A stretch of DNA of 62,252 nt, counting the filler, from Rhabdomonas costata (taxonomy: Eukaryota): assembly GCA_019059605.1 (NCBI GenBank). It is 32 parts of 32 records of this genome, joined end to end, with 100 filler letters (N's around TTAATTAATTAA, not from the genome) between each part and the next. Parts side by side here need not be neighbours in the genome. Positions count along the whole stretch, not along the records: positions 40,924 to 42,772 come from JAHMHO010008244.1; 31 more parts are not named here. One strand, given 5' to 3'. The notes below the pieces were generated by a model. The model had not been told where the DNA came from. It saw only the letters and a program-made list of their open reading frames with translations, and searched no databases. The position numbers and the translations under genes are program-made. Of this stretch, positions 5,286-46,114 are shown in pieces (the first letter of the stretch is position 1; each line of letters begins with the position of its first letter).

Positions 5286-6053
5286 CTGTGCAGCGTGATG
5301 GATTGCTCTGTGGGATGGGATATTCCCGGAATAATGCTCCAATGCTGGGGATTCTCATCAAACGGTTCCCCGATGCTCAGCAAAGCCTCCGCGTTGGAAA
5401 TGCAGTGTGGACTTGTTGTGGTGCAGGCACATTATCAAACCCGGCAATCTTCGGGAAGGTTGACTACACATAACACCTGCAGAACACAAATTGGCAAACT
5501 TCGTTGGGTATGCGTAAAACGGATGAGGAATCTCGATGACATTCCGAAAAAGGGAAGCTTGCCAGGTAGCACCTCCCCAGGTTGCTTTCCCCTTTTCCAG
5601 ACCGGTCGCTCGGTACTGAGTTTCTTAGAATGCAGTGGTGAGGCAGACAGCTCAGTCGTTGCAGTCCATCTACGGCAGCGACAGCGGAAAGGAGGCAAAG
5701 GCTGAGCTGTCTGCCACACCACCACCACNNNNNNNNNNNNNNNNNNNNNNNNNNNNNNNNNNNNNNNNNNNNTTAATTAATTAANNNNNNNNNNNNNNNN
5801 NNNNNNNNNNNNNNNNNNNNNNNNNNNNGGGGTTGGTGGACGACCTTAGGAAGCTCACTGGAAACCCGGCAGAAGGAATAACTTGAACGATGGGTGATCA
5901 CGAGTTAGGTTAGGTTGGTGTGGTGTGGTGAACCATTGACTGAGTTCGTCCCCGATTGATAACTATGGTTGTTGGAAAACGGTGACCGGTGACATCGCAC
6001 CGCGCGCGCACACACACATACACAAACAAGCACAAACACAAACAAACAAACAC

Positions 6054-6839
6054 CGTCATCTCTGCGGCTTGCTCGAGGTATCCCGAAGAGCCTCGCAACA
6101 GAATGCTGTCCACCACCACCCCCAGCCTCGTCGCGCAGCTCAGCGCGTTCATCACCGCCACGTGCTGCCCAGGGACATCCCGCGAAACCTGTGCACACCG
6201 AATCGATCCAGAAACGTCTCTGCACCCCACCCTCGAACTCATAGTACATCGATGGAGGGCGCCGTATTTCTTGCAGAAGCCGAAAGCAGAGGTGACTGAA
6301 AAGCTTCCAGCAGGACGTCCGTGCCTCCAAAGCCAATTGGCTGTCATTCAACAGGATAGCCACCCGCACTCCTGCGCAAATGAACTGTAGCGGCAATTCA
6401 CATCACGCACCATCTTAGCAGGGAGGGAAGGACGGATATAAAGAGAAGACAAACCAAGACGCAGAGAATCTGCGCACAGGTCGGGACGCCGCCCCCGCCG
6501 CTGCCGCCCTGTTCTGCCCGCACCTTTTGCACCCGGCAAAGGGCGAGGGACAGGGCTGAGGACAGTGCGCAGCCCTCAGGGTCCGCCTTGACCTGTACAC
6601 GCGTTTCCAAAGACACTCTGCTCTACGCGGCAACGCTTGCTGCTCCGAGCACAGGTATCAAATGCCTGCGAATAGGCTAACGAAGAGCTAACGAAGTGCG
6701 GCTTGGCCATCATCTCCTCCCATGACTTTCCCTTTTTTTTCTGTCTGCACTTCGTGGTGTCCTCTCCTTCTTGCTAGCTGATTTGGTTGCTGCTTTTTTC
6801 CGAGGGACGTGTTGCTGTTCTAACCTGGATCAAAACTGT

Positions 6840-7677: not shown

Positions 7678-8959
7678 NNNNNNNNNNNNNNNNNNNNNNN
7701 NNNNNNNNNNNNNNNNNNNNNTTAATTAATTAANNNNNNNNNNNNNNNNNNNNNNNNNNNNNNNNNNNNNNNNNNNNGGAGCGGATCGAGTGGGCTACGC
7801 GGGGAAGTCGCAAGAGCCACGTAATTGGTCCGAGCCCGCCGTGCCGTCTGACAGTCGGCGGCCTTGTTCTTGATGGGGTTCTTGGTCTCGCTGGGAGGCC
7901 GTCGTTCTCAGAGAACAAACTAGGACAAAACTCTCCCCTCGAACCTTGCTTGAGGGAAACCACTTTCCCTTTTGATCTCATCCGCTGCCTTGTCTTGGCT
8001 TTCATCCGCTTTTGAATCAAGTCGTGCTTGCATCAATGGCTTCCCTAGCCACTTTCTCCCTCTCAACCTAACTTTTCACTATTCGTTCCCCATAAATCAA
8101 AATACCGGCACGAATCTAGGTAAGTTTAAAAAAGCAGAAGCACAAAAGGCCCGTATCTAAGAGTAAGGCTTATAGGAGAGGCGCGCTGGCAAGCGAATAA
8201 AATAGTCCGGAGGCGCAGTGCAGAAGACAAAAGTCTCGATTTGTAGACGCTGGGCGAGGCGTTCCACTAAACGCGGTTTTTCGGAAGTAGGCGGTATTTT
8301 CGGGGGATTGGTTGGCAAACCGCGGCTGAACAAAGGACTTCGGCCCACCGAGGCACGGACGCACGGCTATGTCAACAAAAAGGCCTTTCCTACTGTTGCC
8401 TTGCCTTGCTTTGCAGTGTCCTGCTTTCACCTCTGCTACCAGGTATTGCAAACCCCGACCCGCAGGGGAATCAGCCCCGCACCGCCCCCGGCCCACTCCA
8501 CAAAGGTCCACACCGGACCGGCCGAAGGGAACCAGGAGACTAACTGTGCCAGGTTGCCTCTTTTCAGGGAGGACGGGGTGGAGTTCCGCGGCCAGATGTG
8601 CCATGTGCAGTTTCATTTTGTCTGTTTGTGTTCCAGAAATTCAGGGAGTGTAACCGAAGAGTTCTTGATGTTCTCTGTTTGTCACGAATTTAGAGCCGCG
8701 ATCTGACCCTGAATTAAAAGCAGCTCTTCTTCCTTCCAACCACAACTACGACTTGGTGTGCAGTGCGTGCGGCTTGCGAGCGGTCGTTGGTAAGCTTCCA
8801 CAATCCAGCGAAAGTTGGTGGTGTTGCGGAGATGTTCACTTTACTGTCCAATCACCGCTTCCTTCTCAGGAGATTCCCTGTTCTACCACACTAGATTGCT
8901 GTCAACGGTAAACAAACAGCCCACACAAAGAGAAGGGGATGTGACAGGAAGTGTTGGAG

Positions 8960-9627: not shown

Positions 9628-12600
9628 NNNNNNNNNNNNNNNNNNNNNNNNNNNNNNNNNNNNNNNNNNNNTTAATTAATTAANNNNNNNNNNNNNNNNN
9701 NNNNNNNNNNNNNNNNNNNNNNNNNNNGGGGGTGTGGGGGTGTGAAAAATCACCTCTTGTGGGAGAATCTGAAGGAGTTTCAGTGGAGATATAACCTTCC
9801 TGACAATGCTGACCCCTTTTTAGTGCTACTGGACTGTGTGCGACGTGGCCACTTCCCCTCTTAATGCTCTTCCCGAAGGTAGGTACATTAGTGCAGTTAT
9901 GCCAAACAAATATATAAACGGAATTCTTGATTTTTCGACTGTTTTATGCTCCCCAATGGAAAAACTACCCGTGTGAGTACCACGCGCCACACAGCTTGCA
10001 TGCGCGTGGTAGCATTCCAGATGGGTTCGAAAGCGCGAGCAACACAAAACAAGACCTTTCTTTCATACGGGTGCGAACGAAAATGGCAGGGGGAGCGGCG
10101 GGATCGTAAAAACGACAAGTACGGGAGGTTCCCAGAGGGGCCTCGGTCGGAGTGTGTGGGCGTTTATGGGAGTGGACTCCGTTGTAGTTGCTGCTGTTGT
10201 CTTGGTTCACCAGTGTCTTCCTTCATTGACTGCTTGAAAGTTTTGTTATTGTTCCTCCCTTCAAACTGTACTGTTTTCCCGCACTCACGTTCTCTTCTCT
10301 TTGCATCTGTGCGGCTGTTGTGTGCGCCGGACTTTGAACACTGGACTTGTTGTGTTCATGGACAAATATTACACCGTCAAGTTCGTTATTAAGTGATCGT
10401 AAAAATTGTCCTGCTGAAGTCGATGGCAATTATATAGGGTCCGCGGGGACGTGGTTTAAAAGGGCATACGTTCCTCTGTGTTTCGAGGTTTAACTATCCT
10501 TGCCATACAAAAGGGCACAAGCGGGTCACGGTACACCATTCGGAGCATGCAGCCAATCTAGAGCACTGTGCGTCACATGATCGCTTACTACATTTTTAGG
10601 TAAGGTTAGAAAAAACGACCACCCACAAAATCCGGACTCTCAGGGAAAGGGTGGTGGATCCACAATGCCCCCCCCCCGAACGTTGTATCACCCACACAAG
10701 AAATGCTCAAATAGTCTTCGCTTGGCACGTTTTTCAACAGGTGTGGATTTAGGAAGAAGAAACGCCAAGGCTGCAGCAACAAACAGTCCATTGTCCAAGA
10801 GCCCGCACATAGCACTTGCGGCAAACCTGCAAAGAGAGAGTAGGAGAAGAAGGACGTTAAGAAATTGCGGTTTGGCACCCCTTTCGTGCGGGCGTTCCAT
10901 TCATAAGGTCGTGGTTCCTGTAGCAAAAAAAAAGTGGAAAGAAACTAAGACTGGATGTGAGGGGAGCGGTTGCATATGAGAGAAGAGATGGATAATGTGG
11001 GTGCACATGACATTGAATCCGAAGAGGAAGACGGAATGCCAAACACACAACTGCTGAGGCGGGGAGAGAACGGGAGATATCACGGCACGTCAGCCATGGT
11101 GGACCATGTTGACGTTTGAGTTTTTTGAGTAAGTATGCGCTGGGATCATTTAGCAAGGCACTTGCTGGGTCCCCTCACTGGGGCCCACCGCCCATACTCA
11201 GGCGTCTTCTCCATCAGCCCACACTTGCCGCCGCTGCTCTCTCTGCGCTGAGCCCGGCGGGATAATTCCTGGTCCCGAGCACTCTGGAGGAGGCCCCCCG
11301 TTCGATTCTTTCCGCAAACTCTGCTGCCAAACATGTACGAATGCGGACCTGATCCAGGAAGGATCGTCTTCTACTGCGCCCTCGGCCCGCTAGACTGCAG
11401 GCCTGATCAGTCGCCTTCCTCCAGAAAACCTCTCTCCAGTTGCCGAGCGACACTGTATACACCAACTCTTCTGAGAGTATACCACTACTCATGGGCAGCG
11501 TCGGCAAAGGGATCGTTTCGTTTGCCCCGAGCTTCACAACATGCCCGAAAATGTCTTTTTCCGCTGGACCCCACAACNNNNNNNNNNNNNNNNNNNNNNN
11601 NNNNNNNNNNNNNNNNNNNNNTTAATTAATTAANNNNNNNNNNNNNNNNNNNNNNNNNNNNNNNNNNNNNNNNNNNNGGCAGACGTCTGGGTTCAGGATG
11701 CTGTGGCGGGCCTGCTTGTCTGGATGTGGCTCAGAGGAGGCTGATGTTTTAGATCGTGCTGTCTGTGCTCCTGTGGTGCCGTTGATTTGTTTCTGTCACA
11801 GAGACGTTTGAAAAGCGGCACGGTGGACGAAAGCTGCTTAGTAGACATCTATATCATGCTTGTTTCCTACTGTACCTCTGCATAAACCTACTTTCTGGTG
11901 AAAGCAGTCAGACCACATGGACTGCCAGCCATAACGATTCCGCCGCCGTGACTCCAGCACGCTTCAGCGGATGGCCCTGTTGTCTAACTTCAAGGGCTCT
12001 GTGACGTTTGCGTGGCCCTCATCCACCGCCTTGACCGACTTCTCAAATTGTTCTGTGTCCTGGTAGGTATTCCGGCTTTATTGCCCATCAACAGAGCAAA
12101 AATGGTCCCACTTCCCAGCTTTGGGAAGTTTATATATAACCTCTTACCACCTGGAAGCCACATCCCTGACATCCTCCTGGAGCAAGTGGCCACGTGACTG
12201 GCATGGATCACGCTGATCACCAATGTCTCCTCCATCGTCCATCTTTCCAGCGGCCCATCTTTGTTGTATCGGAAGTTTACAACCTTTCGGCAGCCACTAA
12301 CCTCAGCTAAGTCATATCCTGGCAAGCAAGTGAATCAACCAATCAAAGCGCAGATTCCGCAACAGGGCAACGCGGGGTACATAAACTGGCAAATCGCGCT
12401 GACAGTAAATGAGGCCATCCTGTATTTCAAACGGCTGACATGAGCCTTCACGTGCTGCGAGACGTGCTTCGACAGTCTCCTCCACTGCATCCTACTGGCC
12501 ATGTCGCGCAGAGCATTGATGGTATATATGGTCCCTCGTGTCCTTCGAAAGATGTCAACTACTGGATGTAACTCGTTATCGCCGTTTAACTTCCACAGTC

Positions 12601-13648: not shown

Positions 13649-15477
13649 CTGTCGGTTGGGGGGCAGAGCACGACGAAGGTGCTGGTACAGGGAGGCCTTG
13701 AACTGGCGCACCGTGGAGGGTTGTCTTGTGGAAATCACCACGGCGGGGCAGAGCCGGCCCCCTGCCTTCCGGGCAGAAGTTATGGAGGCCTCTTGAGCTT
13801 CTGCGGAAAAGGACAAGACCAGGCGGAGCTGCTGCCTGAACAGGAACAGAGAAGCTCCTCGCATCGAAAGACCTTCCTTGGAAAAGTGTGTGGCTGGATC
13901 TTCGGGGTGTTCAGGCAACCAAGGTATTGATGGCGGCAGGGTGCAGGAATGCACTAGAAACGCACGAGCCAAAACACTGACGAACCCACTCCAATCCTCA
14001 GGTATAACGTGGGTATTGGGCAAGATGATACCAGCATCCCGAGACAGGGGAAGGAGTTTGTCTTGCTTGGTAGGCACCGCCTTCAATTATAACACTGGTG
14101 ACCCACCACGAAGACCGCTCCCCATTAATGGCCTGTATGACAGCAGTTCGGGGAGCAAAGTGAAGCAATACAGGAGGGGAGGGGCTCACGGCTTGAACAC
14201 TTGCCACACACCTGGGACTTTGGATGGGAAGGGGGTGAGGGGCCGAGAGTCAACTGGAATGGTGTCGGAAGGTGCATGACGGTGTCCCGAACACTCACCC
14301 CTCCTTTACTCCCCACACCGGCAACACTGGGACTCGGCTAACCAGGGCTCACCGCATACCCTCCGCTTCAGCAGTAGTGCTTACCAGCCGGGATTTCAGC
14401 CCCAGCTCACGCAGCTCTCGAACCAGCTGCGAGGCACGGGTGTGCACCGCCTGCCCCTCGGTCTCGTCAGCCTTTGTGAGGGCCACCACGGTGGGAATTT
14501 TGTGCTCCAAAATCAACGCGACGGCCTCCTGAACGTACACAAGTGAGCCCATTGCACCAGTTCACAATTTGCAGCATGACCTCTGATCATCCGCCACATT
14601 TCACATAGCACAGATAGATGCATTGCGCGAAACCCGACACCACTGGAAAGCTGCAGAGCTGCAGGAACCCCAGGATCACCGCATATCTGCCGATGGTGTG
14701 GGTGCATATCCACCGTCTCGATGACGTTCACATCCAACGTCCAGACACTTAGCTGAAGCAAGTTACATCCCGAAACTCAGTTTGGTATGTTAAGAGTTTT
14801 TCACTGAAGTCCAGGGGACGCTTCAAAAAATGCCGAGGGGTTTCGACAGGTGCGTTTTCCCATTCGCCCTCACTGAATTCCTTTAGCTTACACAATGTGT
14901 CCTCAAAGGCCGCTTCGCAAGAACAGTGACTGGCGTGAAGCGGAGCTACCTTGGTCTGTTCCTGCACGCCCTCCCCCAATGAGACCACCAGCACAGCCGC
15001 GTCAGCCACCACCGCAACGTTTTCCCGCATCTGAGCAAATGGGGGTTGCCCAGGGCAATCTAAGGCCACGGCATAGCGCTCCATATTCCTGTCCACCCGC
15101 GCGGACTCGGAAGGGAGGTCCGCAAACCCAACCTTGAACGCCGCCATCGTCTGATTTGGTACCAGGGCAGCATCCGCCACAAGGGCATCCTCAAGTCCTG
15201 CCTCGCCCGTCTCCAGATCCGCTCCCAGGCCATGACTCAGCCGCATTGCGTCCAGCAGGGCTGTCTTGCCGTGCCCGGAATGTCCGAAAAGGGCAACAAC
15301 GGGAGGGACGGAGAGGCTCTGCTCATCTTCCGGGCGCCAGAGGACATCCATTTCCACGTACTCGATCTTCGCCTCTGGGGCGAGACGAAGGATGAGGTCC
15401 TTCGCAGTGGCAAAGGGGATGACGATCTTGGTGTGCTTCTCTCGGTGCTTCACAAAGGTGAGGCCATACAACCCCAC
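13649..15477 (-). CDS. Divergent (probably mitochondrial) translation initiation factor IF2-like GTPase, partial; exons 15477-14950, 14528-14360, 13800-13649
   Basis: PPVVALFGHSGHGKTALLDAMR, DCPGQPPFAQMR, ADAAVLVVSLGEGVQEQTKEAV, IPTVVALTKAD, GGRLCPAVVIST follow the IF2 G-domain layout. Splice phases are consistent. Confidence 0.8.
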
Positions 15478-16312
15478 NNNNNNNNNNNNNNNNNNNNNNN
15501 NNNNNNNNNNNNNNNNNNNNNTTAATTAATTAANNNNNNNNNNNNNNNNNNNNNNNNNNNNNNNNNNNNNNNNNNNNGGGGGGGTGTGGAGGGTATTACA
15601 GCCACCCAGGCAGTCGAGAGGTAGTCGAGGGCAGGCTTGCCGAAGGAAGCGGGCTTGCTCCCTTCACCCATGACCCCATTGCTCTTGTGCCTCGTCATTT
15701 TACCGCACCAACGGAAAAGATGCGCATCATAACTTTCCCATTATTCCTTCCCACGGGCCGCCGGAGGACTGTGGCTATACACAGCCCCGCACACAGAAAC
15801 AAATTCGCTGGGAACAAAGTGAGCCGCCCACTGGGAGCACTGCTGGTGCGCCAAAATAATACGAATTCCACATTCTGACAAGAAAAAACGGCTAAAGGTG
15901 ACCCCTCGCAAGGTTTAAAAGTCTCGGCCTGAAAAAGCCTCTGGAGAGGCAGCAGCCAAAAAAATAGAATTGCTGGCTCACGGGTCTTTTTCGGTATACT
16001 GAGCCTGGGAAACACTTAAGGCTCCGATCTTGGGCTAGAAAGCAAGAAAAATAGTTTTTGTCGACGGCTATCAACAGCCAGAACTTTGCCACTTTCATTA
16101 GAGTTCTTCCATATTCCTCCATCTCAGAAAGCGGGCTCTGACGTACCAGTCGAGCTTGAGCAATGACACTCCGGTCAGGTCCGGTTCGATCCCCGCCACC
16201 CCCGACTATTAGCGCAAACTCCAGAGGCGGGCTGAGATTAAACGAGTACATGGCAATTGCTGAAGAACACCCCAGAAAAATAAGAAAGAGACGCACGATA
16301 ACGCGCACAAAC

Positions 16313-17172
16313 CAGTGGTGGTCCATCTTCAGGATACAACGGTCGCAAAGGTGGCAGTGGTGCGTACGGGGAGGCTTGTGAGCCTGCAAATCGGCAAAAC
16401 GGAGGCAATCCCCCCCACCGTTCCCCGCAACACTGGTAGCGTATTTTTCAGGAACAGTACACGTGCGGAAACGGATCCCTTGAATCCCTTGAAAAATCTT
16501 TTTCGGAAGTCTGCAGAGCTTAGTCTGAAGCACGTCCGCTGAAGAAACAAATGAAGAGTCCCACCACTGTGCATCCACAATTTAAGTTGGGAGCTGACGG
16601 AAGGTGTTGTGCACATGCAAGCCATCAAAGTGATTTTCTGAGGTTAGGATATCCTGAAATATCTAAGTAACTTTAATTGGAAGTCCAGGGGGTGGCCTTG
16701 AAACCCTGAACCCGTGCAACCACCTGCAGGTAAAGGATGAAGGAACGTAAAAACAGCTACCCTTCCGCCAGTAATTGAAAAATCTACTGCCCCACGCCGC
16801 CTGGCTTCCGCTGAATACGATGGATGGGCACTGTCTGAAAAGGTCAGAATAAAAATATACTCATAATCGTACATAAAAAATCGTGTGGAAAAAGCTCAAC
16901 CTTACAACTTACACAGTAGGTGCTCCACCGGCGGCCTGGCTCGGGGCCGCCGGTCCGAGCCTCTGAGCCCTCTGCGCTGACTTCCGACGCAGGACTCTCT
17001 GAGCCAAAGGATGGTGCGGCAGAGGCAGGGGCGAGGACAGGGGCGCTGAGACTGGAAACGGGCGGCTGGCCTTGGGTGATTCCGGCAGCAAGAGCAGTTT
17101 CGGAGGAATAACCCGGGGAAGTTCTCAATACCATGAAGTAGTGGAAGCACATGTTAAAGGTGACCCAACATC
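16313..17172 (-). CDS. DHHC palmitoyl-acyltransferase, partial; exons 17172-16901 and 16383-16313
   Basis: FNMCFHYFMVLRTSPG...YCVSCK|AHKPPRTHHCHLCDRCILKMDHH(C): canonical DHHC-CRD, with the Cys codon split by an intron (TG|GT). Confidence 0.92.
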
Positions 17173-23155: not shown

Positions 23156-23653
23156 ATCGGCAGCTCTTGTCCTCCCTCCTCCCCCCACACATTTTGGGGT
23201 TGCAAAGAGGCGAAATATCTAATGTACAAAAAGGCACATGCACACGCAAGCCACGCTCGCACACGTTGCCCATTGNNNNNNNNNNNNNNNNNNNNNNNNN
23301 NNNNNNNNNNNNNNNNNNNTTAATTAATTAANNNNNNNNNNNNNNNNNNNNNNNNNNNNNNNNNNNNNNNNNNNNCCTCCCCCTCGCCGTGCATCACTTC
23401 AACCATACCTCGGATGCCGATCCCCTTTTAAGTGGCCTAATAAGATCGTGAACAAAACAAATATCGTGGCTTTGGGGTTTGGATTGTTAGAAGTTTCGTT
23501 TGAAGTCACCCCCATGGGTGGGGACGACGCGAAGTGTTTATTTGGAGTCTCACTGTAAAAGGGCACCCGATACCATAATAATGCCTTCTTGGCGACCCTG
23601 GCGACAGCGGTCTTACGTGTGGGTGCTATGAGTGCCGCGTGGGTGGGTTGGAC

Positions 23654-25136
23654 CTGCAAGTCACGTAGGGTCTCGCGGTAGCGGTGCAGGCTGGGGTCCA
23701 GGGTCTCCTTGCAGAAGCTGATTTGGTACTCCGTGCTGCGGATCTGCCGCTCGGTGTCCTCCAGGCGCTTGGTCTTGTTGTAGATCATCTCGCCCATCTC
23801 CCCGTAGTACCGCCGGAACGCCACCAGGAAGAACTTCTGCTCCTCCAGCGCCAGCGCATCACCTATATTTGTATTTTTTTCTTTTGCAAAAAGCTAGCAG
23901 CTAGCAGCCAGTATACACACCCGCTGACGTTTACCACGATGTGTGTGGTGGGGTGGGACTGAGAGGATCCAGATGGAGCGTCTTCCATCGGATCCGACTT
24001 TTGATCTGGGGTGGGGTCGTTGCTTTTCCACTTCATAACTTCGAAAGTTGGCTGTATGTCAACATCAAAAACTTCCCCCTACGAATTTGTGACCCAAGAA
24101 GCTGGGCCGGACTGGATGCAGGCGGCGTTTCAGAAGATTGAGTCTGACTCTCGATGGGTTTTCCTGAGTCACCATCCCTCTCACGCCGCGGCGGCGTTCT
24201 ACAGCTCCCCGTTTGAGAACGCCCTTGCACTTGCCCTCGACGGAATTACCCTACCACGCCAGCCGAACACTGGGCCTGCGAGAGATCGCCCATTTTGCGA
24301 TGGGAAGCCTTGAACAATGGGTGCGTGTAAAGAGGATGGTAACCACGGAATGACCCCCCACACACCTCAAGAAAAAAAGGGAACCGAGAGTGCCAAAGAA
24401 TGCTACAGAAAAGACAAGGCGGCCAGAGCAATGTCAAAGGAATGCCGGAGTTTTGGAGGGGTGAGTCAGAGGGAAGGGTGTGTGGTTGTGTGTGTGTGCT
24501 TGTGTTGAGGGACGAAGGTAGGCAGCAAATTGTTGGGCCTGAGGCGCGGAGGCGCACGGGGGGGGGTGCGTACCCTCGCTGCTGGCGGCGTTGGCAATGT
24601 CCGCGGCGACCTTGCTGGCCTGCTTGAAGAAGTCGTCAAGGTTCTTCATCATGTGATCCTAAAAGATATATGCGCAGATGTATGCGAGAGACAGAAGCGG
24701 AGAGGGGGGCGGGACAGGTGCACCAATTCACATACAAGCGCAGCAAAATAAATCATCCCACGATGAGGTCGCCAAAAAGCAGCAGGCAGAGATGCAACCC
24801 GCCCAGCACGCTCAACTGACAGAAAACGAATCTGAGATTCACCCCGCCGCCTGGTGTGCTCAGCAGAATACACCCTTTACCAACAGAGTCTGCTGTGGCA
24901 CCGCCTTGGCTCTCCGGGCTAGAATTTGCCACAAGCACGTGAACTGTGGATGATGCACAGTACTCAAGGCACACAAACCAGCACACACACACACACACAC
25001 CGCGGCCTCGCAGTCGTTCATCAGCTGCTTCAAGGTTGTGACGTGGTCCTCGCAGGTGCGGATCGTGGCGTTGTACTCCACCTTGCGGCGCTCCTGCTTC
25101 CCCACCTCCACAGACCAGTCTTCAATGGCCTTGAAC
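23654..25136 (-). CDS. Paraflagellar rod (PFR) family protein, partial; exons 25136-25001, 24658-24574, 23862-23654
   Basis: ERRKVEY...CEDH...L...DCEAA|...|FLVAFRRYYGEMGEMIYNKTKRLEDTERQIRSTEYQISFCKETLDP parallels the PFR1/2 pattern (KRKVEY...AFRRLYKTLGQLVYKKEKRLEEIDRNIR...ETFDP). Confidence 0.85.
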
Positions 25137-25571
25137 CTGTTTTAATTGAAGAATTCCAAATGACAGGCCACAGGTGTCTGGCGGGTGCGAGATGGCGATG
25201 GATGGGGAAAGAGCACAACACCCACNNNNNNNNNNNNNNNNNNNNNNNNNNNNNNNNNNNNNNNNNNNNTTAATTAATTAANNNNNNNNNNNNNNNNNNN
25301 NNNNNNNNNNNNNNNNNNNNNNNNNGTAGTGTTGTTCCGGTTGGACAGTAATGGAAGGAAGGAGTGGAAAGTAAAAATCGTTAATCGTTTTCGTCGAATA
25401 CACAACAGCACCCGTGGAAGGACTCTCACACAGGCACACCGCGAATTCGAGCGCATGTTCCTATCGGAGCACGGGCACAGTATGTGACTTTGCACTCCTG
25501 TCTTATACCCAATGACGAAAGACAGAAGCCGGGAGGACAGAGGGCAGCGTAAGCGAGGGAAGGGCAAGGAC

Positions 25572-25772
25572 CTGTGCACTCCCCGGCGGCGAACAGCCCG
25601 AAGATGGGGCACTTCTTCCCAAACACAGAATGACCCTGGGGCAGCTTCATCTGCACCTCTGCGGAGGGGCTGATCTCCATTCCACCCATACAGTAGTGCA
25701 CCGAGGGGGTGATCTGTGCCACCACATAGGTGTCCCGCTCCAGGTCAAACCGCACCGGAAACACGCACTTGC
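25572..25772 (-). CDS. Soluble (NADH-dependent) fumarate reductase, FAD-binding domain exon
   Basis: KCVFP...VAQITPSVHYCMGGMEISPSAEVQMK...PIFGLFAAGECTG; the ISPSAE.Q insert resembles kinetoplastid FRD. CAG/GT boundaries. Confidence 0.85.
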
Positions 25773-26372
25773 CTGCCGCAACACAAAAAAAAAAAGGAGG
25801 GAGGAAAGCACGTCAAACACAACAGGAGCCGTCAACCGCCTGCTCATCGGGACAACATTGGATCTGCAGAGCTGCCAACGCGTGGTACAGGTGGCCGCTA
25901 GAGTGGGAAACACCTCCCCCCCCCCCCAACCTCTGTTTTTCTGACTCTCGTTTTTGAGGTAAAACGTACAATTTTACCGAAAAAAGACTCTGATCTGCAT
26001 TGTGGGTGGAAAATCGACCTGTCCAGGTGCTGTCGACGACTGCATATGCAACGAACCGCACGTAACCTCGCCGACCAACAGGGAACCGAAAAAAGACGGA
26101 CCATGCACGCTTTCCCAGTCAACCCAAAACGTCACATGGTGGATCACAGCAGAAGCAAACAAGCACCGAAGGAACCCCCACACACACATACGTCGAAGGG
26201 GCACACGACGTCTTCTCGATAAATCCAGTGTCCTGAACCTGCGGAGGGCGACACAAATCCACCGCAGTGGTGCAAGGACCAGTGGAGAAACGTTATTCTA
26301 CTGCCAAACCCTCCTCCCCTCAGCCCCTTTCACTGGTGTCCGCGTGCGCGTTTGTGTATTTTATGCGCGCTA

Positions 26373-35076: not shown

Positions 35077-36409
35077 GGTGGTGGTTCATTGGGAGCGAAG
35101 TGGATGTCACCGGAAAGCCGTCCACGTACAGCTGGCCCTGTGCGGGTGCGGGGGCCACCAGCTGAACCATTGAGTACTGGGGGTCTGAGGAGCAGTTTTG
35201 ACTGGTGCACAGGGGCAGTGTGCGGCGGCTTCCCGGGATGTAGCCCACCATGGTCGAGGGCACTGGTGGGGCCCACACTCCGGGCGAGTAGGGGCTGCGG
35301 AAGGGCACGTCCCATGGTGTGCAGGAGAGCTCTGGGAAGGTGGTGGTTGACAACAGCTCCAGGGTGTAGTTTTGGGCAGAGGCTGTCGAGGTGGTGGGGG
35401 AACCCAGGTCGTTGAAGTGCCACTGCGCGACAAGGCCAGGAGCATCCTCGGGAGCGGTTTTGTGGAGGTACTGACGGATCCCTGCGGCACTGCGGGTGGT
35501 ATTCCACAGGCGAAGCTCGTCCAGATGGCCAACCCACGCTGCGGAAAAATTACCAGGATAGCGGGAGATAAGAAAATGTCACACTCGGTTTGGCTCACCC
35601 TGTGCGTGGAGCTCACAGTATCACCACCAAAAGACGTGTGCCCAGCACACACGCCTGCGCTCGGATTCACTTGCCGTCGCACTCGTATTTTAATCCGGAC
35701 ACTGGTGTGCGCAGGGAGAGCTCCCCACCCACTCCGCTCACTATCCCGCACAGCAGCACACTGCGTGTTAATCCATCACTTACTTCAAAAGCACAGCAGG
35801 TCAAACGCAAACCCCATTAAACCCGATCCTTCGTCGTGTCACGATTTACGCAGCAGGAAACGCCCCATCAGCCCGCTCCAGAAAACCTTGTAGCGGGTCA
35901 AAACTGCCCATGTACGCGTTCATGCTTTGCCCCAACACGATCATGGCATCCGCCGGGAAGAGCAGAAGGGGCTTCAGCGTGGTTTCGAACACAAGGTCTC
36001 CGTCAAAGTAGAACGAGAACGCCCCGTTGGCGTCGTGAGTGGCGGCGTAGTGGTGCCAGGCCCGGTCCACTGGTGTGTAGTACCCACTGTAGTCGTAGTC
36101 GTCCAGAAGAAACCCGATCCCAATCTCAGCAATAATGATGCCAAAGTCCTCCCAGAACCCCCTGGCGGCGAAGTAGGAGTTGATCTGGATCACAAAGGAG
36201 AGGGATTGGGGAGGGAAGGCGGAGGCCGCCCAGAGCTCAATGGTCCAGTTGGTGCCATTGGGGATCCCGTTGAAATGGTTCAGGAACACGACACTGCTGT
36301 TGTGGTGCAGGAACAGCGACATGTCAGGGAGAGTAGCAAAGTCTGTGGCACCCGTCCCTCCGAGGAGCATGCACCACACAAACACGGCAAGCAGACAATC
36401 GACTCGCAT
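35077..36409 (-). CDS. Secreted LamG/pentraxin (concanavalin-like) domain protein, 3'-partial; exons 36409-35887 and 35538-35077
   Basis: Signal peptide MRVDCLLAVFVWCMLLGGTGA; WTIELW, WHHYAATHD...FYFDG, IVLGQ...GSFDPLQ|AWVGHLDELRLWNTTRS...GLVAQWHFND. Confidence 0.85.
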
Positions 36410-39400
36410 TGTTGGCAAAAGATGGGACACAGAGAAAAGGAAAAAGGAAATTTCAGCTGTATAAAATCGAGAACATACTTCATCATACAGGAAAGCTTCT
36501 GGCGCAATGCAGCCATAATTCCCAATAACAATTCCGCTGAACGTCAGGTAAACCCGCAGCATAGCCTTGAGCTAAACCTTGTCTATCACGTCCTGGCTCT
36601 TGTGCAAAGTCCAGAGGTATAAGAAAGACCCAGCCCTTATTGACTCCTTTGAGGAGCCTTTGACGGAGTGCTTTGGCAGATATTCACAGACAGACTGAAG
36701 CACAAGCCGACCGAGAGAGAAGAATAGGTCACGGGGAGGTTGTGATTCGTTGTTCGCTGCGCTGTAACGTCGTGAGTCGATTTTGCAGCCTTTTGGAACC
36801 CTTCATTTCTTTAACCTTTGAATGGTTTTATCGTTTGACGTGACGGAAGGAGAAATGCAAGCAATGAAAAGAAAAGGATGACCGCACACCCTCGTCACAC
36901 TCAAGCCCCCACCCCCACCCAAAACNNNNNNNNNNNNNNNNNNNNNNNNNNNNNNNNNNNNNNNNNNNNTTAATTAATTAANNNNNNNNNNNNNNNNNNN
37001 NNNNNNNNNNNNNNNNNNNNNNNNNAATAAAACCTGATTTTCATTTTGCTTGTCAAAATTAGCAGCACACCTGATCTGAATAATTGGGTATTAGAGCCGT
37101 TGTGGTCTACGTCCCGTAGAACCCACGGCCGTCTCCATCCCAAGATGGAATCAACCAATGACCGGGGCTACGTTTCCGCCTCCCCATCATTTTTCTTCAA
37201 AGCAATACCTGCATTTCATTTTTCTTTAAAAACTTGCAGCTCTCATTTTACGTTATCTAAAGATCTAATCAGCAGCGCATCAGCTTGATCTGAATCAATT
37301 CTGGGTTTCAAAAAACACACGGGAACTAAAGATCACTGCTATTCTTGCAGACCTTCAGCTAGACATGGGATATGGATTCCCAATGAAATGCATCACTGGC
37401 GGTGCATCGAAAGAATTCGAAGGAAGCGAAGAAACCCTACCACCACCAGATAAGCACAGACCTGCTGCCGCAAAGCAGGCTTGTGTGGCTTCGGCCTGAG
37501 TGAAACCCCATTCAAACATACGCAGGCACACTGAGTTGGGTGTGCGGGGTAAAGAACGTCGAATCTATGTTCAAGGCAACTCCGGCCCCACCCAAAACCA
37601 GAACATAAGTTGCCACACTGCGCAAGACTAAAGGAGTCTGGAGCACCTGCAAAATTTGTGATGACGGCAATAAAAGATCACACATAAACTTTGGAACTTG
37701 GTGAGGCAGCTTTTCTGGGGAAGATTAGCGATTTATTAGCCTCTGGGCTCCCCACCCACGTTGACGGGTATCACTCCCGCCGCCCCAAACACAACCACAG
37801 AAGTAACCCTCAACTTCCATTGCTTATCTTGGGCCTATAGCGTACAGGCGAAAAACCCAGATGCCCGTGAGTATCAACTCCAACACACTCAGCACATACT
37901 CAAGACCGCACACACACAGAGCTTGGTGTGAAGGGAGAACCTGTCAGGCACCGAAGTCGGCTCTAATTCATATCACGGTCTACCACGCTGGTGTCGCTTA
38001 GGAGTTAAGCTGAAGGCAACTCTGAACCCACCCTAACAACAAGGTCTTCCCCTGTGGAACATGGGGGGTAGCAGGTGCCTGGTTGGGGACATTAGTTGCC
38101 TTGGCGCGCTTAAGTGGCCGGAGTCTCGTTACGTGGTGAAGCTTTTTGTGGCTACTGGGAAGGGTCAAACACAAGCCCATACACACAGAGCGCATACGTC
38201 TCTGGATGAGGGATCGGCAGAGCAGGAGGTGGGAAGTGCCGCTGCTGCTGCCTGCGAGAACACAACATTAAGGTCGCCATTTCTAACTTTTTCATTCGGT
38301 CTTGGTCTGTTCGCAGGAAATCCACAAGTTTCTTTTCGTTCTGGGGGGCATACCTTTCCTCCTCTGCCGGCCTCCGGACCTGTGCAACAGTCGTCAGTCA
38401 GTCTCCCACTGGCAGCAAAGGGATCGGTGCACTCCCCAGAGCAACATTCCACAAGCTGATTAACTGCGGTGCGATCCAATGCCCTTCAACGTCATCCGCA
38501 GGGATTCGAGTTTTTTTTGCTATTCTTGCGGACCAAAATTTTTATGGTAATTTTCTCCTGTGCCTGTGGGCCTGTGGGGTAAAAAAGAAAAGCTCATGGA
38601 TCAGAACAAGAAGATCTGACTGAAAAGAACGAGTTTGCCGTGGCCACGGATTTGAAACCGGTGAAACCGAAAATTTTCACAAGACTTTTCAAAAAAACAT
38701 GCAGATAAAAAACCCCTCTATCTGCCATCATCTCAATTAAGCCAGCGATTCGAAAGGAGTAGGAAGACGAAGGCCACTGGCCCTGAGGGCTGATATGGAG
38801 AGCAATTAGATATAGCTCACTTTTCTGAGCAACAGATGCGACTGGAGCAAAAGGCGCTGTGCGGGGGGGGGGGGNNNNNNNNNNNNNNNNNNNNNNNNNN
38901 NNNNNNNNNNNNNNNNNNTTAATTAATTAANNNNNNNNNNNNNNNNNNNNNNNNNNNNNNNNNNNNNNNNNNNNTGTTTCTTTTCTTTTAGGCGCGCTGC
39001 CCTCCCCCTCTCCTCTGACTGTTGGGTGGTCCAGGCGTTTAATTTTGAAAGTAGAGGGAAGCCTGATGAGGATAACTGTTTGAGTCAGCAGGATCCCCCG
39101 AGACCAGGACCTAAAGTCTCTCTACGGTTTATAGTGCATAGTGCCCTGGAATCCGAAACTTGCAGGCTTCCGCCGCGGACGCTCCTGCCGAGGACGCGCA
39201 TGAAGGAGGGGCTCAAGAATCCTCCCCCGAGGCGATTCGGCCACTGGTGCTTTCATCTTTGGTGGAGGCCGAGTTCATGGACTACGGCACGATGCGTGGT
39301 GTCCTGGAGCGTGGCATGGTGTGGCTTTGCGACTGAAGACGACCCCTGTGCTATGCCGTGCCCCATCAATTTTCTGGTTTGGATTCATCCCGAACAGTAC

Positions 39401-40566: not shown

Positions 40567-41674
40567 GTGTGCCCTCCCCCACTCCGCTCCGTGTGACCTC
40601 CCTTTCTGTGCGTATGGGTTTTCCGAACGGTGCGAGTGTTTCCTGCCTATTGGTCCTCCCCAAAAGAGTTTACGTTGCGCTGCAAGTTGGAGCACAACGA
40701 TGAACGAAAATAGGGATCCAATCGGCAGCACTGCACATAACAGGCACCAGTTCGAAGAGACGCACACGCGCGGTCGGTCGCACTCACCCACTCACTCAGC
40801 CGATTGCGAGTGATAACAAAACCNNNNNNNNNNNNNNNNNNNNNNNNNNNNNNNNNNNNNNNNNNNNTTAATTAATTAANNNNNNNNNNNNNNNNNNNNN
40901 NNNNNNNNNNNNNNNNNNNNNNNTGTTTTTTGTTGATTAGGGTTTTGCTGCAGACGAGAGGGGATGGAAAGAGCGTGAGCAAAGGGTTTGGGCTTTGATT
41001 CCATTTGTTCGTGCTTGTGTTGGTAGTGCGTTTTAATTAGGTTGCAAGGGAGAAGCGCGGAGGGGAAAGAGCCGGCGCAAAACCAGAGGGGTAGAGTGTG
41101 GGGATCGTAGCTGCTGCGGTTGTGGTTGTGAACGCTGCTGTGGTTATTGCTGCGTCAATGATGCGTCAGTCCCTGCCTGCTTGAGCGGAGGAGAGAGGCA
41201 GAAGGGGTAGCCAGAGTCACACCCATCCCGCCCCAGTGTAAAAAAGCAGAACCCGATGCCGCAATCCCGCATAAGTCAAAACACCAGGTTCCCCCATTGC
41301 AAGCCTCGTACCCCATTCCCAGTCTGTTGGTTTGCAAAAAGACTGCCGCGCTAAAGAGAGAGATTGCGTCGCCACTCCCTATTGCATAACGCACCCAAGC
41401 ACACGAGGAAAGACCGAAAAGCCTTGCACGCCTCCTCCCGTTGCCGCATCAGAAAGGACACTCTCACCTTTGACCGCGGGAGACATCAGGTTCCCTCGCA
41501 CGCCAGACTTTGGACGAAAGTCGAAGCCGTCCCGTTCGTAAGAAAGTCACGCTCTGGACACCCAAGGTAAGCTGTGACAGCGACCACTTTGCAAAAGCAT
41601 AGTCGGGATACTGCTGCTGAACACGGAGCCCGGTGGAACCACCGGCCGACGCCGGGTTACACGTAAGCGGTGAG

Positions 41675-42011
41675 GTTGTGGTACCACGTATCCCTTCGTG
41701 AAAGTTGTGGTACCACGTATCCCTTCGTAACACGTGGTAGCAGAGGATCAAGTTGAGAAGACCCTTTGTGGTGGAGCGCATCTCAACGTTGTGGTAGCAC
41801 GTATCACTTCGTGACACGTGGTTGCAGAGTTTGATTAGCCAGTGCGGAAAAGCGCAGCTCCTAATTGTGGAACCACGCGTCAGTGTGTGTGACGCGTGGA
41901 AGCAGAGGTCAACCAGAGAGATTTGTGCGGTGCAAAGAGTCCAGCGCGGAGAAGAGAGCGCGCAGCTGAGAAGAGGAACCGCGTGCAGATTCGTGGCACG
42001 TGGTGACAGAG
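41675..42011 (+). repeat. Array of ~42-nt hairpin repeats (LTR-end + PBS-like units): 41675-41703 (partial), 41704-41745, 41788-41829, 41864-41907, 41970-42011
   Basis: Consensus GTTGTGGWACCACGT-loop-ACGTGGTWGCAGAG; spacers of 42, 34 and 62 nt; identity decays 5'->3'. Confidence 0.9.
41735..41748 (+). promoter_or_regulatory. Primer-binding site complementary to an initiator tRNA-Met 3' end
   Basis: TGGTAGCAGAGGAT lies 2 nt after ...TTCGTAACA (typical LTR 3' terminus). It is complementary to ...ATCCTCTGCTACCA, the 3' end of animal-type eukaryotic tRNAiMet. Confidence 0.7.
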
Positions 42012-42341
42012 CAAAGCCAAAGGTTGAGAACTCCCTAAGTGGTGTCAGCTGAATTGCGAAAGGAGTCGCGTAAGTTTGCGAGTTTGCACATAGCGGGGAG
42101 GTTTCCGAAGAGGTGGAGAACTCAGCGAATCAAGCCGAAGTCAGAGGAGGAGTGGGGACAGCCGTCTTGCATTTGCAAGATGGAAAAGAGTGTTGTTGCG
42201 CCCCTCGGTTGCTGAGTTGCAAGCAAGACCCCGCGCTCTGTGTTGGGTTGAGTGTAGTGTTCCTGTTCCATGTACTTTTGTCACTTGGGAAGCGCAAAAA
42301 AAAAGGCTTGTGTGTATTTGTTGGGGCTGAGCTGAATTGAG

Positions 42342-42772
42342 ATGTCGGGAGAAAGTGCGCCCCAAACGCCAGAAGCTTTCCAGACTTTCTTGTTGCATGC
42401 AGCTTCGCTGTTTTGGCAGCTGGAAGCGCAGCAGAAGTCGAATCAAGAACTGGCAGACAGTCTGGTGCAGAGATTAAGAGTTACAGTGGGATGCCGTCTG
42501 GTTCCAGTGGAGGAGTTGCAGAGACAGCGGCAGTGCCCGTCACAGTTGTTCCAGGCCCGTCAGAGGCAGTGGCAGGAGCATTGCGGAAACTTCAAGAAAA
42601 AGATCCGGAATTTACAAGGTACGACGGTAGTGCAGCTAATTTTCATCCGTGGTTAGTTGCAGTGGAAGAATTGAAAGATTTTCGGAGAGTTCCGGATCAC
42701 GTTGCCATTGTGTATGCGACGGGAGCTTTAGGCTCGTTTGCAAGGGGAATCATTGCCCCGAATCAAACTTTC
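42342..42772 (+). mobile_element. Retrotransposon gag N-terminal region (LTR / Ty3-gypsy-like), one frameshift near 42465-42490
   Basis: MSGES...coiled coil LEAQQKSNQELADSL, then in another frame PEFTRYDGSAANFHPWLVAVEELKDFRRVPDHVAIVYATGALGSFA, the retrotransposon capsid-like Y/F-DG...W...E...A...L pattern. Lies downstream of the PBS and is intronless. Confidence 0.7.
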
Positions 42773-43442
42773 NNNNNNNNNNNNNNNNNNNNNNNNNNNN
42801 NNNNNNNNNNNNNNNNTTAATTAATTAANNNNNNNNNNNNNNNNNNNNNNNNNNNNNNNNNNNNNNNNNNNNACCGGGAGGCCGGCCGGGCGGGGTTTGG
42901 GGCCTCGCTGGGCCGCCTGCATGGTATATTTCCTGCAATCTGCCCTCGTGCTTTTGTATTTTCTCGTCCTTTCTACTTCGACTCGACTCAGGCACGCAGA
43001 CACACTGTGACCGTTCAGCTTTGGACAGGGGATTGAAGGGCGACGCGAGTACGAAGTACGGAGGTCTGAAGGGGAGGTTACTGAGTTTTTTGAGAAAGGT
43101 GCTTATGCTGATAGGTATCGGATCACCTGGGTTGTCCTTAGTTCCATTTTTGCCGTCCGCAATGTTCCTGCTCCGATTTCCTTGTTTTCGGCTTCTTATG
43201 ATCGCGTGTCAAGGTTTCTAACCGCTGGGAGTCACACGAACATCATCAAAACCCACTTGCCATCGAACTGGAAAAACGTCACAGCAATGGCTTCAAAACC
43301 AATGAAGCAGCTTTGTTTACGTATGTGAATACACCGTTGTAATTTGTCTGTGTGTTTGTCACCTCTGGAACCTGCTGTGGCTTTTTGTTACTTTGTCGTT
43401 CTAAGGAGGCACGGGGCGCTTTTTATGTGGCTTGCTTCGTAG

Positions 43443-43976: not shown

Positions 43977-44827
43977 GCATACCACTTTGCTCCAAGGGCG
44001 GAGGGAAGAGAACGAAGACTTGCTATGTGACTTTGGAGAGGGGAAGAGGTCTGAGCTGAGAAAGAATTAACGGTCGAGTGCGTGCTGGCGGAGGTGGATG
44101 CTGAATAACATCAAGCTCTGGGTGATCCAACGAGGGGAGTGCTTCCGGAGGGCTGCAGCCCAAATTGCTCACCACGCAGCCCCCATCAGCCGAGGAGGGA
44201 CCCTCTTGAGAGAGGTCCCTGGTTTCATGACAGGTATCCTGCTCCAGCGGGACCCTGACCCCTCCCGCGTCACCACCATCCATCATTTCCATACCCCTTA
44301 CCCTGAAGGTAGGAGGAGAAGACGGGAGTTCTCGTGCGCGCGTGCGCCTTTCAGGATTTTTCCGAGAAGGTGAACTTTGTTGTGCAGCAGTGCTCCCGGC
44401 TGAACCTGCTTCCCACAGTGGTGGATGCGGCACATCCGTGGTGATTTGCGTGTGAGAATTTTCATCTGCAAGCAACGGAGACCCTGAACCGAAGTCAATG
44501 AAAGGTTTAGTCCCTTCCAGCTTGCAAACGGTGACCAGTCCTTCCCGTGCGGTGAACTATCTCGAGAGAACTAGAGCTAGAGGGGTGCTTCATGGCCCAT
44601 GTTAGCCTGACACATCTACATCAGTGTCGTTCCACTCATGTAAAACCTTGAAGGCTCCTCCGTGTTCTCGCAGGCCTTCCTTGGGTTCCTGCTCAACACC
44701 TACGCCTTCTCCACCCAACCCNNNNNNNNNNNNNNNNNNNNNNNNNNNNNNNNNNNNNNNNNNNNTTAATTAATTAANNNNNNNNNNNNNNNNNNNNNNN
44801 NNNNNNNNNNNNNNNNNNNNNCGGCAG

Positions 44828-46114
44828 GAAGGGTGTGGATGGCGGGCGCATTCTGGTGGAGTGCCTGGTTGGGGATTTCGCGGGGAACCTTGACAGCGTG
44901 CGCGCCGTGGCCACCTCGGGCCTGGATGTCTTCGCGCACAACGTTGAGACCGTTGAGAGGTGCGTCCTCTACTAATGCTCTGCTTCCAGCCCTTTCTGCC
45001 CGTTCAGTTTCAGGCATCAGAAGCTCGGCGTTCAGCACGTGGTGCGTAATTGGTCGGCCCGGAGGCCGAAGAACCCGCACCCACTTCAGTTTCAGGCGTC
45101 GGGTAGGGGGGGGGCTTTTCGGATCCTTTGTTGGCGGTTTCAGCGACGGATGTGCAGGTGGCTTTGTAACACCATGATTCCCCAGACGTTGGGATTTGCG
45201 TAAATGGCAGTGCTGATAGGGGACACGTCACCTCCACGGGAGACCCCCACACGCACACCAGAAAAAACGGAAGGTTTCATGGACAGTTCGAATCATTGAT
45301 CCCCTACTTGTCGCCGACGATGTGTTGATGCCACCTCCCCCCAATCGACTCCTCCGTGTCCCAATGACAGGCTCACTCCGATGGTTCGGGACCGCCGGGC
45401 ATCCTTCGCGCAGTCTTTGCGGGTGCTGCAGGAAGCGAGCGAGGCACAGCCGGGGCTGCTGACGAAGTCCTCTGTGATGCTGGGCCTGGGGGAGACCCCA
45501 GAAGACATTCGCGCAGCATTGCAGGGCCTCCGAAGCGCCGGGGTGCAGGCAGGTAAGGAATCGGGAATGGGGGGGGGGTTGTCCCCAACATTTTTATGTT
45601 TCCCGTTTCCTCAAAATTGAGAGCTGATGGGATGTTGCCTGAAGTTCTGTTATAAAAATGCATCAATCAACTCTCAATTTCTTATGATGGGACCGAACAG
45701 TACTGTGATTATACCTGTGAACTCTGAGCTTCAGCTTTGTGGTATGCCTTTGTATCTAGGGATTCTTCGTCTTGTCTTCGCTCCTCAATCAACCTCGACA
45801 CTAGACACCCACTACTAAGCTGACCATTTGTGCCTGTCTTCCCTTGCACGCACTCAGTTACTCTGGGACAGTACCTTCAGCCCGATAAGACCCGAATGAA
45901 GGTCTCGCGGTTCGTCCCTCCGGAGGAGTTCCAGGCCTGGCAGCGCGAGGGGGAGGCCATGGGCTTCGCTTACGTCGCCAGCGGCCCCTTGGTGCGCTCG
46001 AGCTACCGTGCAGGGGAGTACTTTCTGGAGAACGTCCTAAGGGCCAAAGGAAGGAAGACCTCAGTCCCGCCGTACAAGACTCAGGTTCACCCCTCACCAC
46101 AGGCAGATTTGTAA
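44828..46114 (+). CDS. LIAS: Lipoyl synthase (radical SAM), C-terminal half; exons 44828-44959, 45371-45552, 45858-46114
   Basis: [12 protein letters not shown]...[25 protein letters not shown]...[12 protein letters not shown]...|VTLGQYLQP...[19 protein letters not shown]; all junctions in phase. Confidence 0.97.

Follow-up and report, generated by a model that had tools for sequence, protein, structure and literature searches.

How does a retrotransposon fare when the site at which its reverse transcription is primed is present several times over? An element with long terminal repeats (LTRs) cannot freely change its primer-binding site (PBS), and hosts target this same site for silencing by tRNA fragments. 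If such an element had replicated with several diverged PBS modules, one would ask how the correct priming site is chosen, how the repeats survive strand transfer, and whether decoys can blunt a defence based on tRNA-derived fragments (tRFs). These questions are raised by a locus of Rhabdomonas costata (assembly GCA_019059605.1), contained in a stretch of 62,252 nt, filler included, that was assembled from 32 parts of the genome and is called the window below. At 41675-42011 of its plus strand, units resembling an LTR end followed by a PBS are arrayed upstream of a broken gag. The array is a diverged tandem repeat with 76-106-nt periods, which spans the LTR-end/PBS boundary over the first ~340 nt of the locus, and the locus, as judged from its sequence, holds the 5' portion of an LTR retrotransposon of the Ty3/gypsy type that is now dead. 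A tRNA primer site laid out in tandem together with its covering hairpin, in four to five copies, is unusual, while a working array of several PBSs is a possibility that we rate as improbable. With a single dead fragment as its basis, the case is offered as a starting point for surveying the leaders of this element family and not as a demonstrated mechanism.

The retrotransposon setting follows from the order of the parts along the strand, namely a putative U5 end (...GTAACA, to 41732), a 2-nt spacer, a PBS (41735-41748), a leader of ~590 nt and the broken gag. The junction in the first unit, ...GTAACA / CG / TGGTAGCAGAGGAT, has the canonical arrangement of CA, two nucleotides and TGG. Its PBS is complementary to the 3' end, CCA included, of a human-type initiator tRNA-Met (tRNA-iMet), and the 14-nt match that had been claimed for it is exact: its 14 nt coincide with positions 1-14 of the 18-nt PBS carried by the Met(i) mutagenic primer printed in PMC1797187, the reference tRNA being human and possibly not that of the host. 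Kelly and colleagues gave HIV-1 those 18 nucleotides so that its PBS would pair with human initiator tRNA-Met (PMC1797187). By our own arithmetic, an exact 14-nt tRNA-iMet PBS is expected ~5e-4 times by chance in 62 kb on both strands; the window has one exact match, and three when up to two mismatches are allowed, against 0.29 expected.

The gag fragment consists of two pieces on the plus strand. An N-terminal part is open from the ATG at 42342 to 42485 (tblastx to the relatives L002/L003 described below, 47.6% over 42 aa), and the N-terminal part of the capsid occupies 42548-42772 in a different frame and reaches the mask of N letters at 42773. As both parts share one frame in the relative L002, the window gag carries one frameshift. 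Homology halts at the mask, with none after 42873, and gag is lost past residue ~144. Twelve proteins of about the same length are homologous to the open reading frame (ORF) 42341-42772, at E 1.3e-25 to 2.1e-7 and with 52-72% identity across 31-60% of the query, and a longer gag homologue, P0013 (480 aa, E 1.1e-13), bears a C-terminal C-x2-C-x4-H-x4-C knuckle; its tblastn match to the window is confined to 42563-42772. P0013 has 93 relatives among 1.84 billion representatives, and the 14 longer ones of these were scanned for domains. Ty3_capsid was detected in 11 (6 above the Pfam cutoff), Retrotrans_gag in 9 (7 above it) and zf-CCHC in 8 of the 14, while two had no match and one had zinc knuckles only. 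The window fragment itself has no Pfam match at E <=1, and the knuckle region is absent from this broken copy. When 105 proteins of the family were compared with the window by tblastn, 78 high-scoring segment pairs were obtained, all in the 42.5-42.8 kb gag, plus one weak match at 3012-3092. The domains of the homologues, together with the canonical junction, bear out the assignment of the array to a retrotransposon leader upstream of gag. The pair of N runs at 42773-42816 and 42829-42872 covers the point where gag homology ends; such pairs of 44-nt runs, 12 nt apart, recur every ~1950 nt throughout the window, with 64 runs in total.

Within the leader, four units of ~42 nt (41704-41745, 41788-41829, 41864-41907 and 41970-42011; U1 to U4) follow a partial unit of 29 nt (U0, 41675-41703), all on the plus strand. 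U0 comprises the 5' arm and loop without a PBS-like word; its first 25 nt are those of U1 (25/25), and it agrees with U2 at 25/27 positions by blastn. U1 carries the word GTAACA-CG-TGGTAGCAGAG (41727-41745), in which the putative U5 terminus runs to 41732 and the CG spacer is 41733-41734, and folds as a hairpin of TACCACGT with ACGTGGTA. The rest of its period, spacer 1 (41746-41787), terminates in GCGCATCTCAAC. U2, 89% identical to U1, has the word GTGACA-CG-TGGTTGCAGAG (41811-41829) and a weakened hairpin, and is followed by spacer 2 (41830-41863), which terminates in GCGCAGCTCCTA. U3, with GTGACG-CG-TGGAAGCAGAG (41889-41907), forms a perfect 10-bp hairpin of CCACGCGTCA with TGACGCGTGG, after which comes the longest spacer, spacer 3 (41908-41969), which includes GCGCGCAGCTGA. 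U4, with GTGGCA-CG-TGGTGACAGAG (41993-42011), forms a 9-bp hairpin of ACCGCGTGC with GCACGTGGT, one pair being G-U. The rest of the untranslated leader extends from 42012 to 42341 and opens with ~35 nt of homology to spacer 1. The layout given in the original prediction was thus recovered in full: four complete units and a partial one, present nowhere else in the window, with every quoted LTR-end/CG/PBS-like word located at 41727-42011.

Each period begins with the terminal ~27 nt of U5 and continues through CG and a PBS-like 11-mer into a spacer of 34-62 nt that closes in GCGCAKCT, the motif rightly reported as common to the spacers and found at the ends of spacers 1-3. The four periods measure 84, 76, 106 and ~83 nt and align across unit and spacer alike, head to tail. 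The periods span the U5/PBS boundary, and repeated duplication of that junction, as proposed, is supported. Spacers 1-3 and the sequence after U4 can all be aligned with one another, the 35 nt after U4 matching spacer 1 at 71%. The CRISPR-like look that had been remarked upon does not survive this comparison, in which the spacers prove mutually homologous and part of the repeat period. The likeness to a CRISPR array is visual only, polarised repeats with non-identical stretches between them, whereas the repeats here are 64-89% identical rather than near-identical and stand in a eukaryotic context with introns. Host genes in the window are eukaryotic in type (Tfb4, DHHC, paraflagellar rod, LipA split into exons), and a CRISPR-like repeat-spacer array was rejected also for the lack of any Cas-related Pfam match among 207 ORFs. 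These comprised 69 ORFs of at least 80 aa at 37.0-50.6 kb and 138 of at least 100 aa elsewhere, ORFs of 80-99 aa being included only inside 37-50.5 kb.

Searches by several methods delimit the array in the same way. A repeat search returned a 45-nt family with 41701-41745 as reference, 41785-41829 at 89%, 41967-42011 at 64% and a partial member at 41672-41716, as well as a 20-nt family over the four LTR-end/CG/PBS-like words at 100, 85, 85 and 75%. A profile hidden Markov model (HMM) of the four periods recovered the partial unit at 41675-41701, which was absent from its training set, at E 4.6e-4 (nhmmer), and found no other match in the window below E 0.2. The covariance model recovers its four training units at E 4e-13 to 4e-11, with the next match at E 0.07, and blastn of 41000-42772 against the window returned the units as sole matches. 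With up to two mismatches, CACGTGGTNGCAGAG occurs in the window at the four array sites, at 8431 and at no others; with up to three, there are 10 matches against 5.9 expected. Tandem Repeats Finder at a score of at least 30 makes no call on the array, which indicates that the copies are diverged and differ by indels. Further periods downstream (42053-42240) were not significant (reached in 340, 617 and 1705 of 2000 shuffles), nhmmer and the covariance model being blank there. Upstream, inside the putative U5, 41632-41668 (+) may hold a degenerate extra unit (GTGGAACCAC...ACACGT..AAGC) without TGG; this tentative candidate aligns locally to U3 with a score of 23, reached by 42 of 2000 shuffles, and was not recovered by nhmmer or the covariance model. 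No known RNA family reaches the Rfam gathering score in the window, and none appears at E <=5 in 41400-42400. A tRNA gene or tRNA-derived short interspersed element (SINE) on the minus strand of U1 was also considered and rejected, ARAGORN being blank there and the tRNA match stopping after 14 nt.

The units differ from one another in a graded manner. In 42 columns, U2, U3 and U4 carry 4, 11 and 14 substitutions relative to U1, so that the decay of identity away from the putative LTR described at the outset is borne out; U2 differs from U3 and U4 by 11 and 14, and U3 from U4 by 17. The gradient is real and tree-like, ((U1,U2),U3),U4, and follows the order along the DNA, which would place the newer copies next to the LTR. 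The age of the older duplications can be set against the state of gag, whose frames hold 123 codons with 53 one-step routes to a stop and no stops at all. If the divergence of U1/U3, U1/U4 and U3/U4 were neutral decay after insertion, 2.9, 3.9 and 5.1 stops would be expected, and the probability of finding none is 0.058, 0.020 and 0.006, respectively, in a calculation that models substitutions only and takes its rates from short units. The intact frames suggest that the older duplications predate insertion and that no fewer than three units had been formed while the element was still replicating.

The hairpins were examined against two kinds of expectation. All arms described for units 1-4 were located, and single-unit folds were compared with 200 shuffles each. 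The minimum free energy is -13.9 kcal/mol in U1 (z -2.5, matched by 2/200 shuffles), -19.9 kcal/mol in U3 (z -4.2, 0/200) and -16.9 kcal/mol in U4 (z -3.9, 0/200). The spacers fold no better than shuffles, and this includes the hairpin claimed in spacer 1 (GTTGAGA/TCTCAAC), which exists but has a z of only -0.57. In the second test, random changes were introduced at the observed number of differences and it was asked how often the hairpin stays as stable as observed. Starting from any other unit, the energy of U3 is reached in 0.1-0.3% and that of U4 in 0.75-1.85% of 2000 trials (0.4% and 0.7%, respectively, in a version with 5000 trials), while with U1 or U2 as target the figure is 4-25%. One pairing register is common to all units, with 79% of 48 cells paired, a share that falls to 17-48% once the 3' partners are shifted 1-3 columns out of register. 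Double changes from T-A to C-G occur at two pairs, U3 having C-G for T-A relative to U1, and two cells are G-U. The hairpins of the two most diverged units hence exceed what drift would predict, and structural retention is suggestive, although the excess in U3 and U4 would fit selection on RNA structure and templated quasi-palindrome correction alike. In the PBS-like words, none of the four units departs from TGG or CAGAG, whereas the intervening triplet, whose pairing partners would be tRNA bases 71-73, reads TAG, TTG, AAG and TGA. U1 is the one unit complementary to the tRNA without interruption.

A history that would account for these observations, and which we judge to be somewhat probable, is that the U5-end/PBS module was serially duplicated in a replicating lineage, that U1 alone served in priming, and that the distal hairpins were kept as structure of the leader RNA. 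Serial tandem duplication of the LTR-proximal module would yield the periods. Its likely cause would be template switching by reverse transcriptase near the PBS, where minus-strand synthesis ends, with slippage or unequal exchange as the alternative; template switching at this point would account both for the position of the repeat across the U5/PBS boundary and for the younger copies adjoining the LTR. The older duplications would have arisen while the element still replicated, with U1 as the sole working primer site. A PBS in use is re-copied from the tRNA in each cycle, at plus-strand strong-stop synthesis, and U1 alone would for this reason keep an uninterrupted match to the tRNA. Units 2-4 would be unused paralogues that drifted at PBS positions 4-6 (from TAG to TTG, AAG and TGA), and in the distal ones the hairpin that joins the U5 arm to the beginning of the PBS-like word would have been kept or even reinforced. 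The weakest step is the last one, in which the stacked hairpins in the leader RNA may serve packaging, dimerisation or the control of tRNA annealing.

A metagenome scan for other copies of the element returned three loci, of which L001 begins inside gag, and L002 and L003 are overlapping, near-identical versions of one element; L002 begins inside the leader, so that only L003 has a whole leader. L003 (1991 nt) has ends that repeat at a period of 1959 nt (30/32 nt) and contains, in order, a degenerate and broken gag, a non-coding LTR-like stretch of ~680 nt, the junction ...TTGGCA CG TGGTATCTGAAGAT, a leader of ~470 nt and the start of gag. This junction is homologous to that of the window (nhmmer E 0.041). 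With this layout, L003 could be a non-autonomous derivative of the form LTR-internal-LTR, a tandem array, or a circle with one LTR that the assembly collapsed. Protein scans of viral contigs and of genome contigs gave no other copy, and a 25-nt degenerate word for the unit had no matches in either set of contigs. One further candidate, L004, a high-GC phage-like contig matched by an 18-nt word, was dropped as a chance match.

Several observations weigh against the history proposed here. The array is known from a single copy of its family, and in L003 there is one clear unit and one more CACGTGGTTG word 125 nt downstream, which is identical to a 10-mer of U2 but to which the profile gives no match; the L003 junction, moreover, has no significant hairpin (z +0.79). 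The array as a feature of the family is accordingly not demonstrated by L003, which, at ~65% identity to the window gag and being itself degenerate, is too distant and decayed either to confirm or to exclude an array in the window's own family. In the window, the U2 hairpin is weak (z -1.1, with 27/200 shuffles folding as well), and the invariant CAGAG lies outside the hairpin, where structure offers no explanation for it. Covariation is not significant, as its score is reached by 118/500 shuffles with four sequences and by 62/500 with five, the fifth being a hairpin found elsewhere than in the array. The claim that the units were retained for structure is thus supported in part: the hairpins of U3 and U4 beat random substitution (p 0.001-0.02) and all units share one register, but the covariation does not reach significance. 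The element is likewise incomplete. No direct repeat of at least 60 nt, and hence no second LTR, exists in the window; domains of reverse transcriptase, RNase H, integrase and protease were found in 0/207 ORFs; and neither a polypurine tract (PPT) nor a target-site duplication was found in the window, the 3' end of the element lying outside it. The copy is a 5' fragment, for which the limits of the putative 5' LTR cannot be fixed, and the putative LTR end at 41732 is placed solely by the CA/2-nt/TGG junction. A PBS does follow a CA within 0-5 nt in U1, yet it was matched to a human tRNA, which may differ from the host's. The origin by template switching is conjectural, and the units are rich in CpG and may evolve faster than gag, which weakens the dating argument.

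The same observations may be read in other ways. An element with a single PBS could have inserted and died, after which slippage or unequal exchange in the host multiplied the segment and quasi-palindrome correction kept the hairpins, with no function involved. Quasi-palindrome correction is an established mutational process and would mimic compensatory change, and the insignificant covariation agrees with such a private event, as do the existence of only one known copy, the lack of a clear array in L003, and a protein search with a 221-aa reading of the array's minus strand, which found no other copy among 191 candidates. The 25/25 nt shared by U0 and U1 also point to at least that duplication being recent. 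What speaks against it is the age of the rest: the divergence of U3 and U4 corresponds to 0.16-0.29 substitutions per site per lineage, yet gag has no stops where 2.9-5.1 would be expected. Random substitution, furthermore, does not readily produce the hairpin energies of U3 and U4, and an invariant TGG and CAGAG around three varying bases is not the picture of uniform decay. We therefore hold this explanation to be unlikely, while giving it serious weight. A host hairpin repeat unrelated to any retrotransposon, with a chance likeness to an LTR and PBS, could draw on the absence of an LTR pair and of pol from the window and on a similar lone hairpin with TGGTAGCA at 9978-10014, remote from gag relics. 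It would have to produce by accident an exact 14-nt PBS that follows CA at a distance of 2 nt and precedes, by ~590 nt and on the same strand, a gag with strong homologues, and appears very improbable.

Two further readings give the extra units a task. Their words TGG...CAGAG, with internal mismatches of 1-2 nt, might be functional tRNA sites, employed for alternative priming, as a sponge for 3'-tRFs, or as anchors of tRNA-bridged dimers. Such a role would explain why TGG and CAGAG, which would pair with CCA and the 3' strand of the acceptor stem, are invariant though partly outside the hairpin. Precedents exist: 3'-tRFs silence active LTR retrotransposons through complementarity to the PBS (PMC12853362), and nucleocapsid (NC)-promoted annealing of one tRNA to two sites of gypsy RNA forms a tRNA bridge (PMC1635307). 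Complementarity to the printed 18-nt PBS amounts by eye to only 11/18 in U3 and U4, however, and it is in these units that the strongest hairpins would hide the PBS-like word. Extra PBS copies should, on the standard scheme of reverse transcription, also invite mis-annealing at plus-strand transfer and loss of units, and L003 shows no such array. We consider functional tRNA sites improbable, and assign a similarly low likelihood to the bolder version in which a working array of PBS-mimic hairpins, grown at the LTR-proximal end by template switching, would bind several tRNA-iMet molecules or their 3' fragments as an anti-3'-tRF sponge or as a dimer or packaging anchor. The array could instead act at the level of DNA, its CACGTG(G) words being E-box/G-box-like sites for host factors in a leader enhancer or insulator. 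Three of the 11 CACGTGG words in the whole window lie within 270 nt here, and spaced copies between LTR and gag resemble leader enhancer arrays. Over its full length the window shows no enrichment of CACGTGG (11 found, 8.6 expected), the conserved part reaches into the tRNA-complementary CAGAG, and U3 has ACGCGTG in place of CACGTG yet keeps and extends the pairing, which structure fits better; a regulatory array is improbable too and, if anything, the less credible of these functional readings. Self-priming of the Tf1 type, in which the start of the transcript (R) is complementary to the PBS and is cleaved to give the primer, was set aside on geometry, as the partner of the PBS lies 13 nt upstream inside U5 and extension would copy only the loop.

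The serial duplication favoured here would modify a familiar arrangement. The junction shares with canonical Ty3/gypsy elements and retroviruses the LTR end in CA, the 2-nt spacer and a PBS that starts with TGG and includes the complement of CCA, and U5 folds onto the start of the PBS as in their U5-PBS stems. Yeast Ty3 is itself primed by tRNA-iMet. Canonical elements have one PBS and one stem, whereas here the module stands four to five times in tandem, with differences in three central PBS bases. Repeated sequences are familiar in leaders, where tandem repeats or enhancers include the Su(Hw) sites of gypsy and occur in ZAM, Idefix, Tirant and copia. Those arrays are protein-binding DNA that starts downstream of the PBS, while here the U5 terminus and the PBS are included and an RNA-type hairpin is conserved. 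More than one tRNA-complementary site per genomic RNA is known from the dual PBS of Ty3 and Drosophila gypsy (PMC1635307). Gypsy RNA has a 5' and a near-3' site that pair with different parts of the tRNA, in a manner reminiscent of Ty3, and cDNA synthesis needs only the 5' site (PMC1635307). The second gypsy site, near the 3' end of the RNA, pairs with the anticodon and T-stem regions, the 5' and 3' sites of Ty3 being comparable (PMC1635307); in the present array, by contrast, the copies are tandem paralogues of one word complementary to the tRNA 3' end, all within 300 nt of the 5' LTR. By analogy, the closest counterpart is found at the other priming site, in the Sireviruses, for which PMC2829016 describes multiple PPT copies upstream of the 3' LTR. 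There too a priming site is reiterated next to an LTR with its terminal copy tied to the LTR end, as in a mirror image; the Sirevirus repeat concerns the primer of the plus strand, in plant Ty1/copia elements and genus-wide (PMC2829016), and the present one the primer site of the minus strand, with a hairpin, in one copy. If the proposed history is true, the array would be the PBS counterpart of these multiple polypurine tracts. Word searches of open-access text, which depend on wording, found no description of tandem PBS copies in the literature.

Possible traces of related modules were noticed elsewhere in the window. At 44930-44988 on the minus strand, 2.2 kb past the gag fragment in window coordinates, an inverted partial period consists of the U3 word TGGAAGCAGAG, a spacer of ~35 nt and CTCAACGTTGTG, the sequence of the junction of spacer 1 and U2. 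These words co-occur once outside the array and in 0/300 block shuffles, in a test devised post hoc, while local alignment of the array to 44822-45300(-) under lenient settings was not significant (24/300). This is probably a relic of the array repeat in opposite orientation, and may point to a rearrangement or to another fragment of the element that lies inverted. A lone hairpin at 9978-10014 (+), formed by GTACCACGCGC, 14 nt and GCGCGTGGTAGCA, has a perfect 10-bp stem in the register of the units and ends with the opening 8 nt of the PBS word, with GGGTTCGAAAGC 13 nt downstream. This hairpin, 31.7 kb away from the array and with no gag relic near, is matched by the covariance model at E 0.07 on a rough calibration, and may be a relic of the U5/PBS module of another copy. 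For the pattern ACCACG-N5-35-CGTGG, 0.88 matches would be expected, and 7 were found, spread over 4 loci. A second exact match to the tRNA-iMet PBS, of 12 nt (TGGTAGCAGAGG, after ...GCAATACC), is present at 8430-8441 (-), where by our arithmetic ~0.007 are expected in the window; with no gag relic and no Pfam match near it, this word may have served as the PBS of a different LTR element that has since decayed.

The remaining content of the window, which has a GC of ~0.5 and coding sequence in short exons, is that of a eukaryotic host. On the same strand as gag and 2.5 kb downstream in window coordinates lies a lipoyl-synthase-like radical-SAM gene in two exons, 45300-45617 (Radical_SAM, E 3.6e-4) and 45824-46111 (assigned by eye only), both (+), with the retroelement fragment placed either in its upstream region or inside an intron. 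Pfam scans identified, all on the minus strand, Tfb4 (5913-6347), an IF2/EF-Tu-type GTPase (14752-15477), DHHC (15895-16581), a paraflagellar rod protein (23402-23893, E 5e-15), FAD_binding_2 (25429-25812) and Laminin_G_3 (35849-36571). The match to the paraflagellar rod protein hints that the host is a flagellate protist. At 13945-14040 (-), ARAGORN calls a 96-nt tRNA-Tyr with anticodon ATA, where Rfam has no tRNA at the gathering score; this is probably a pseudogene, a misread intron-containing gene or a false call.

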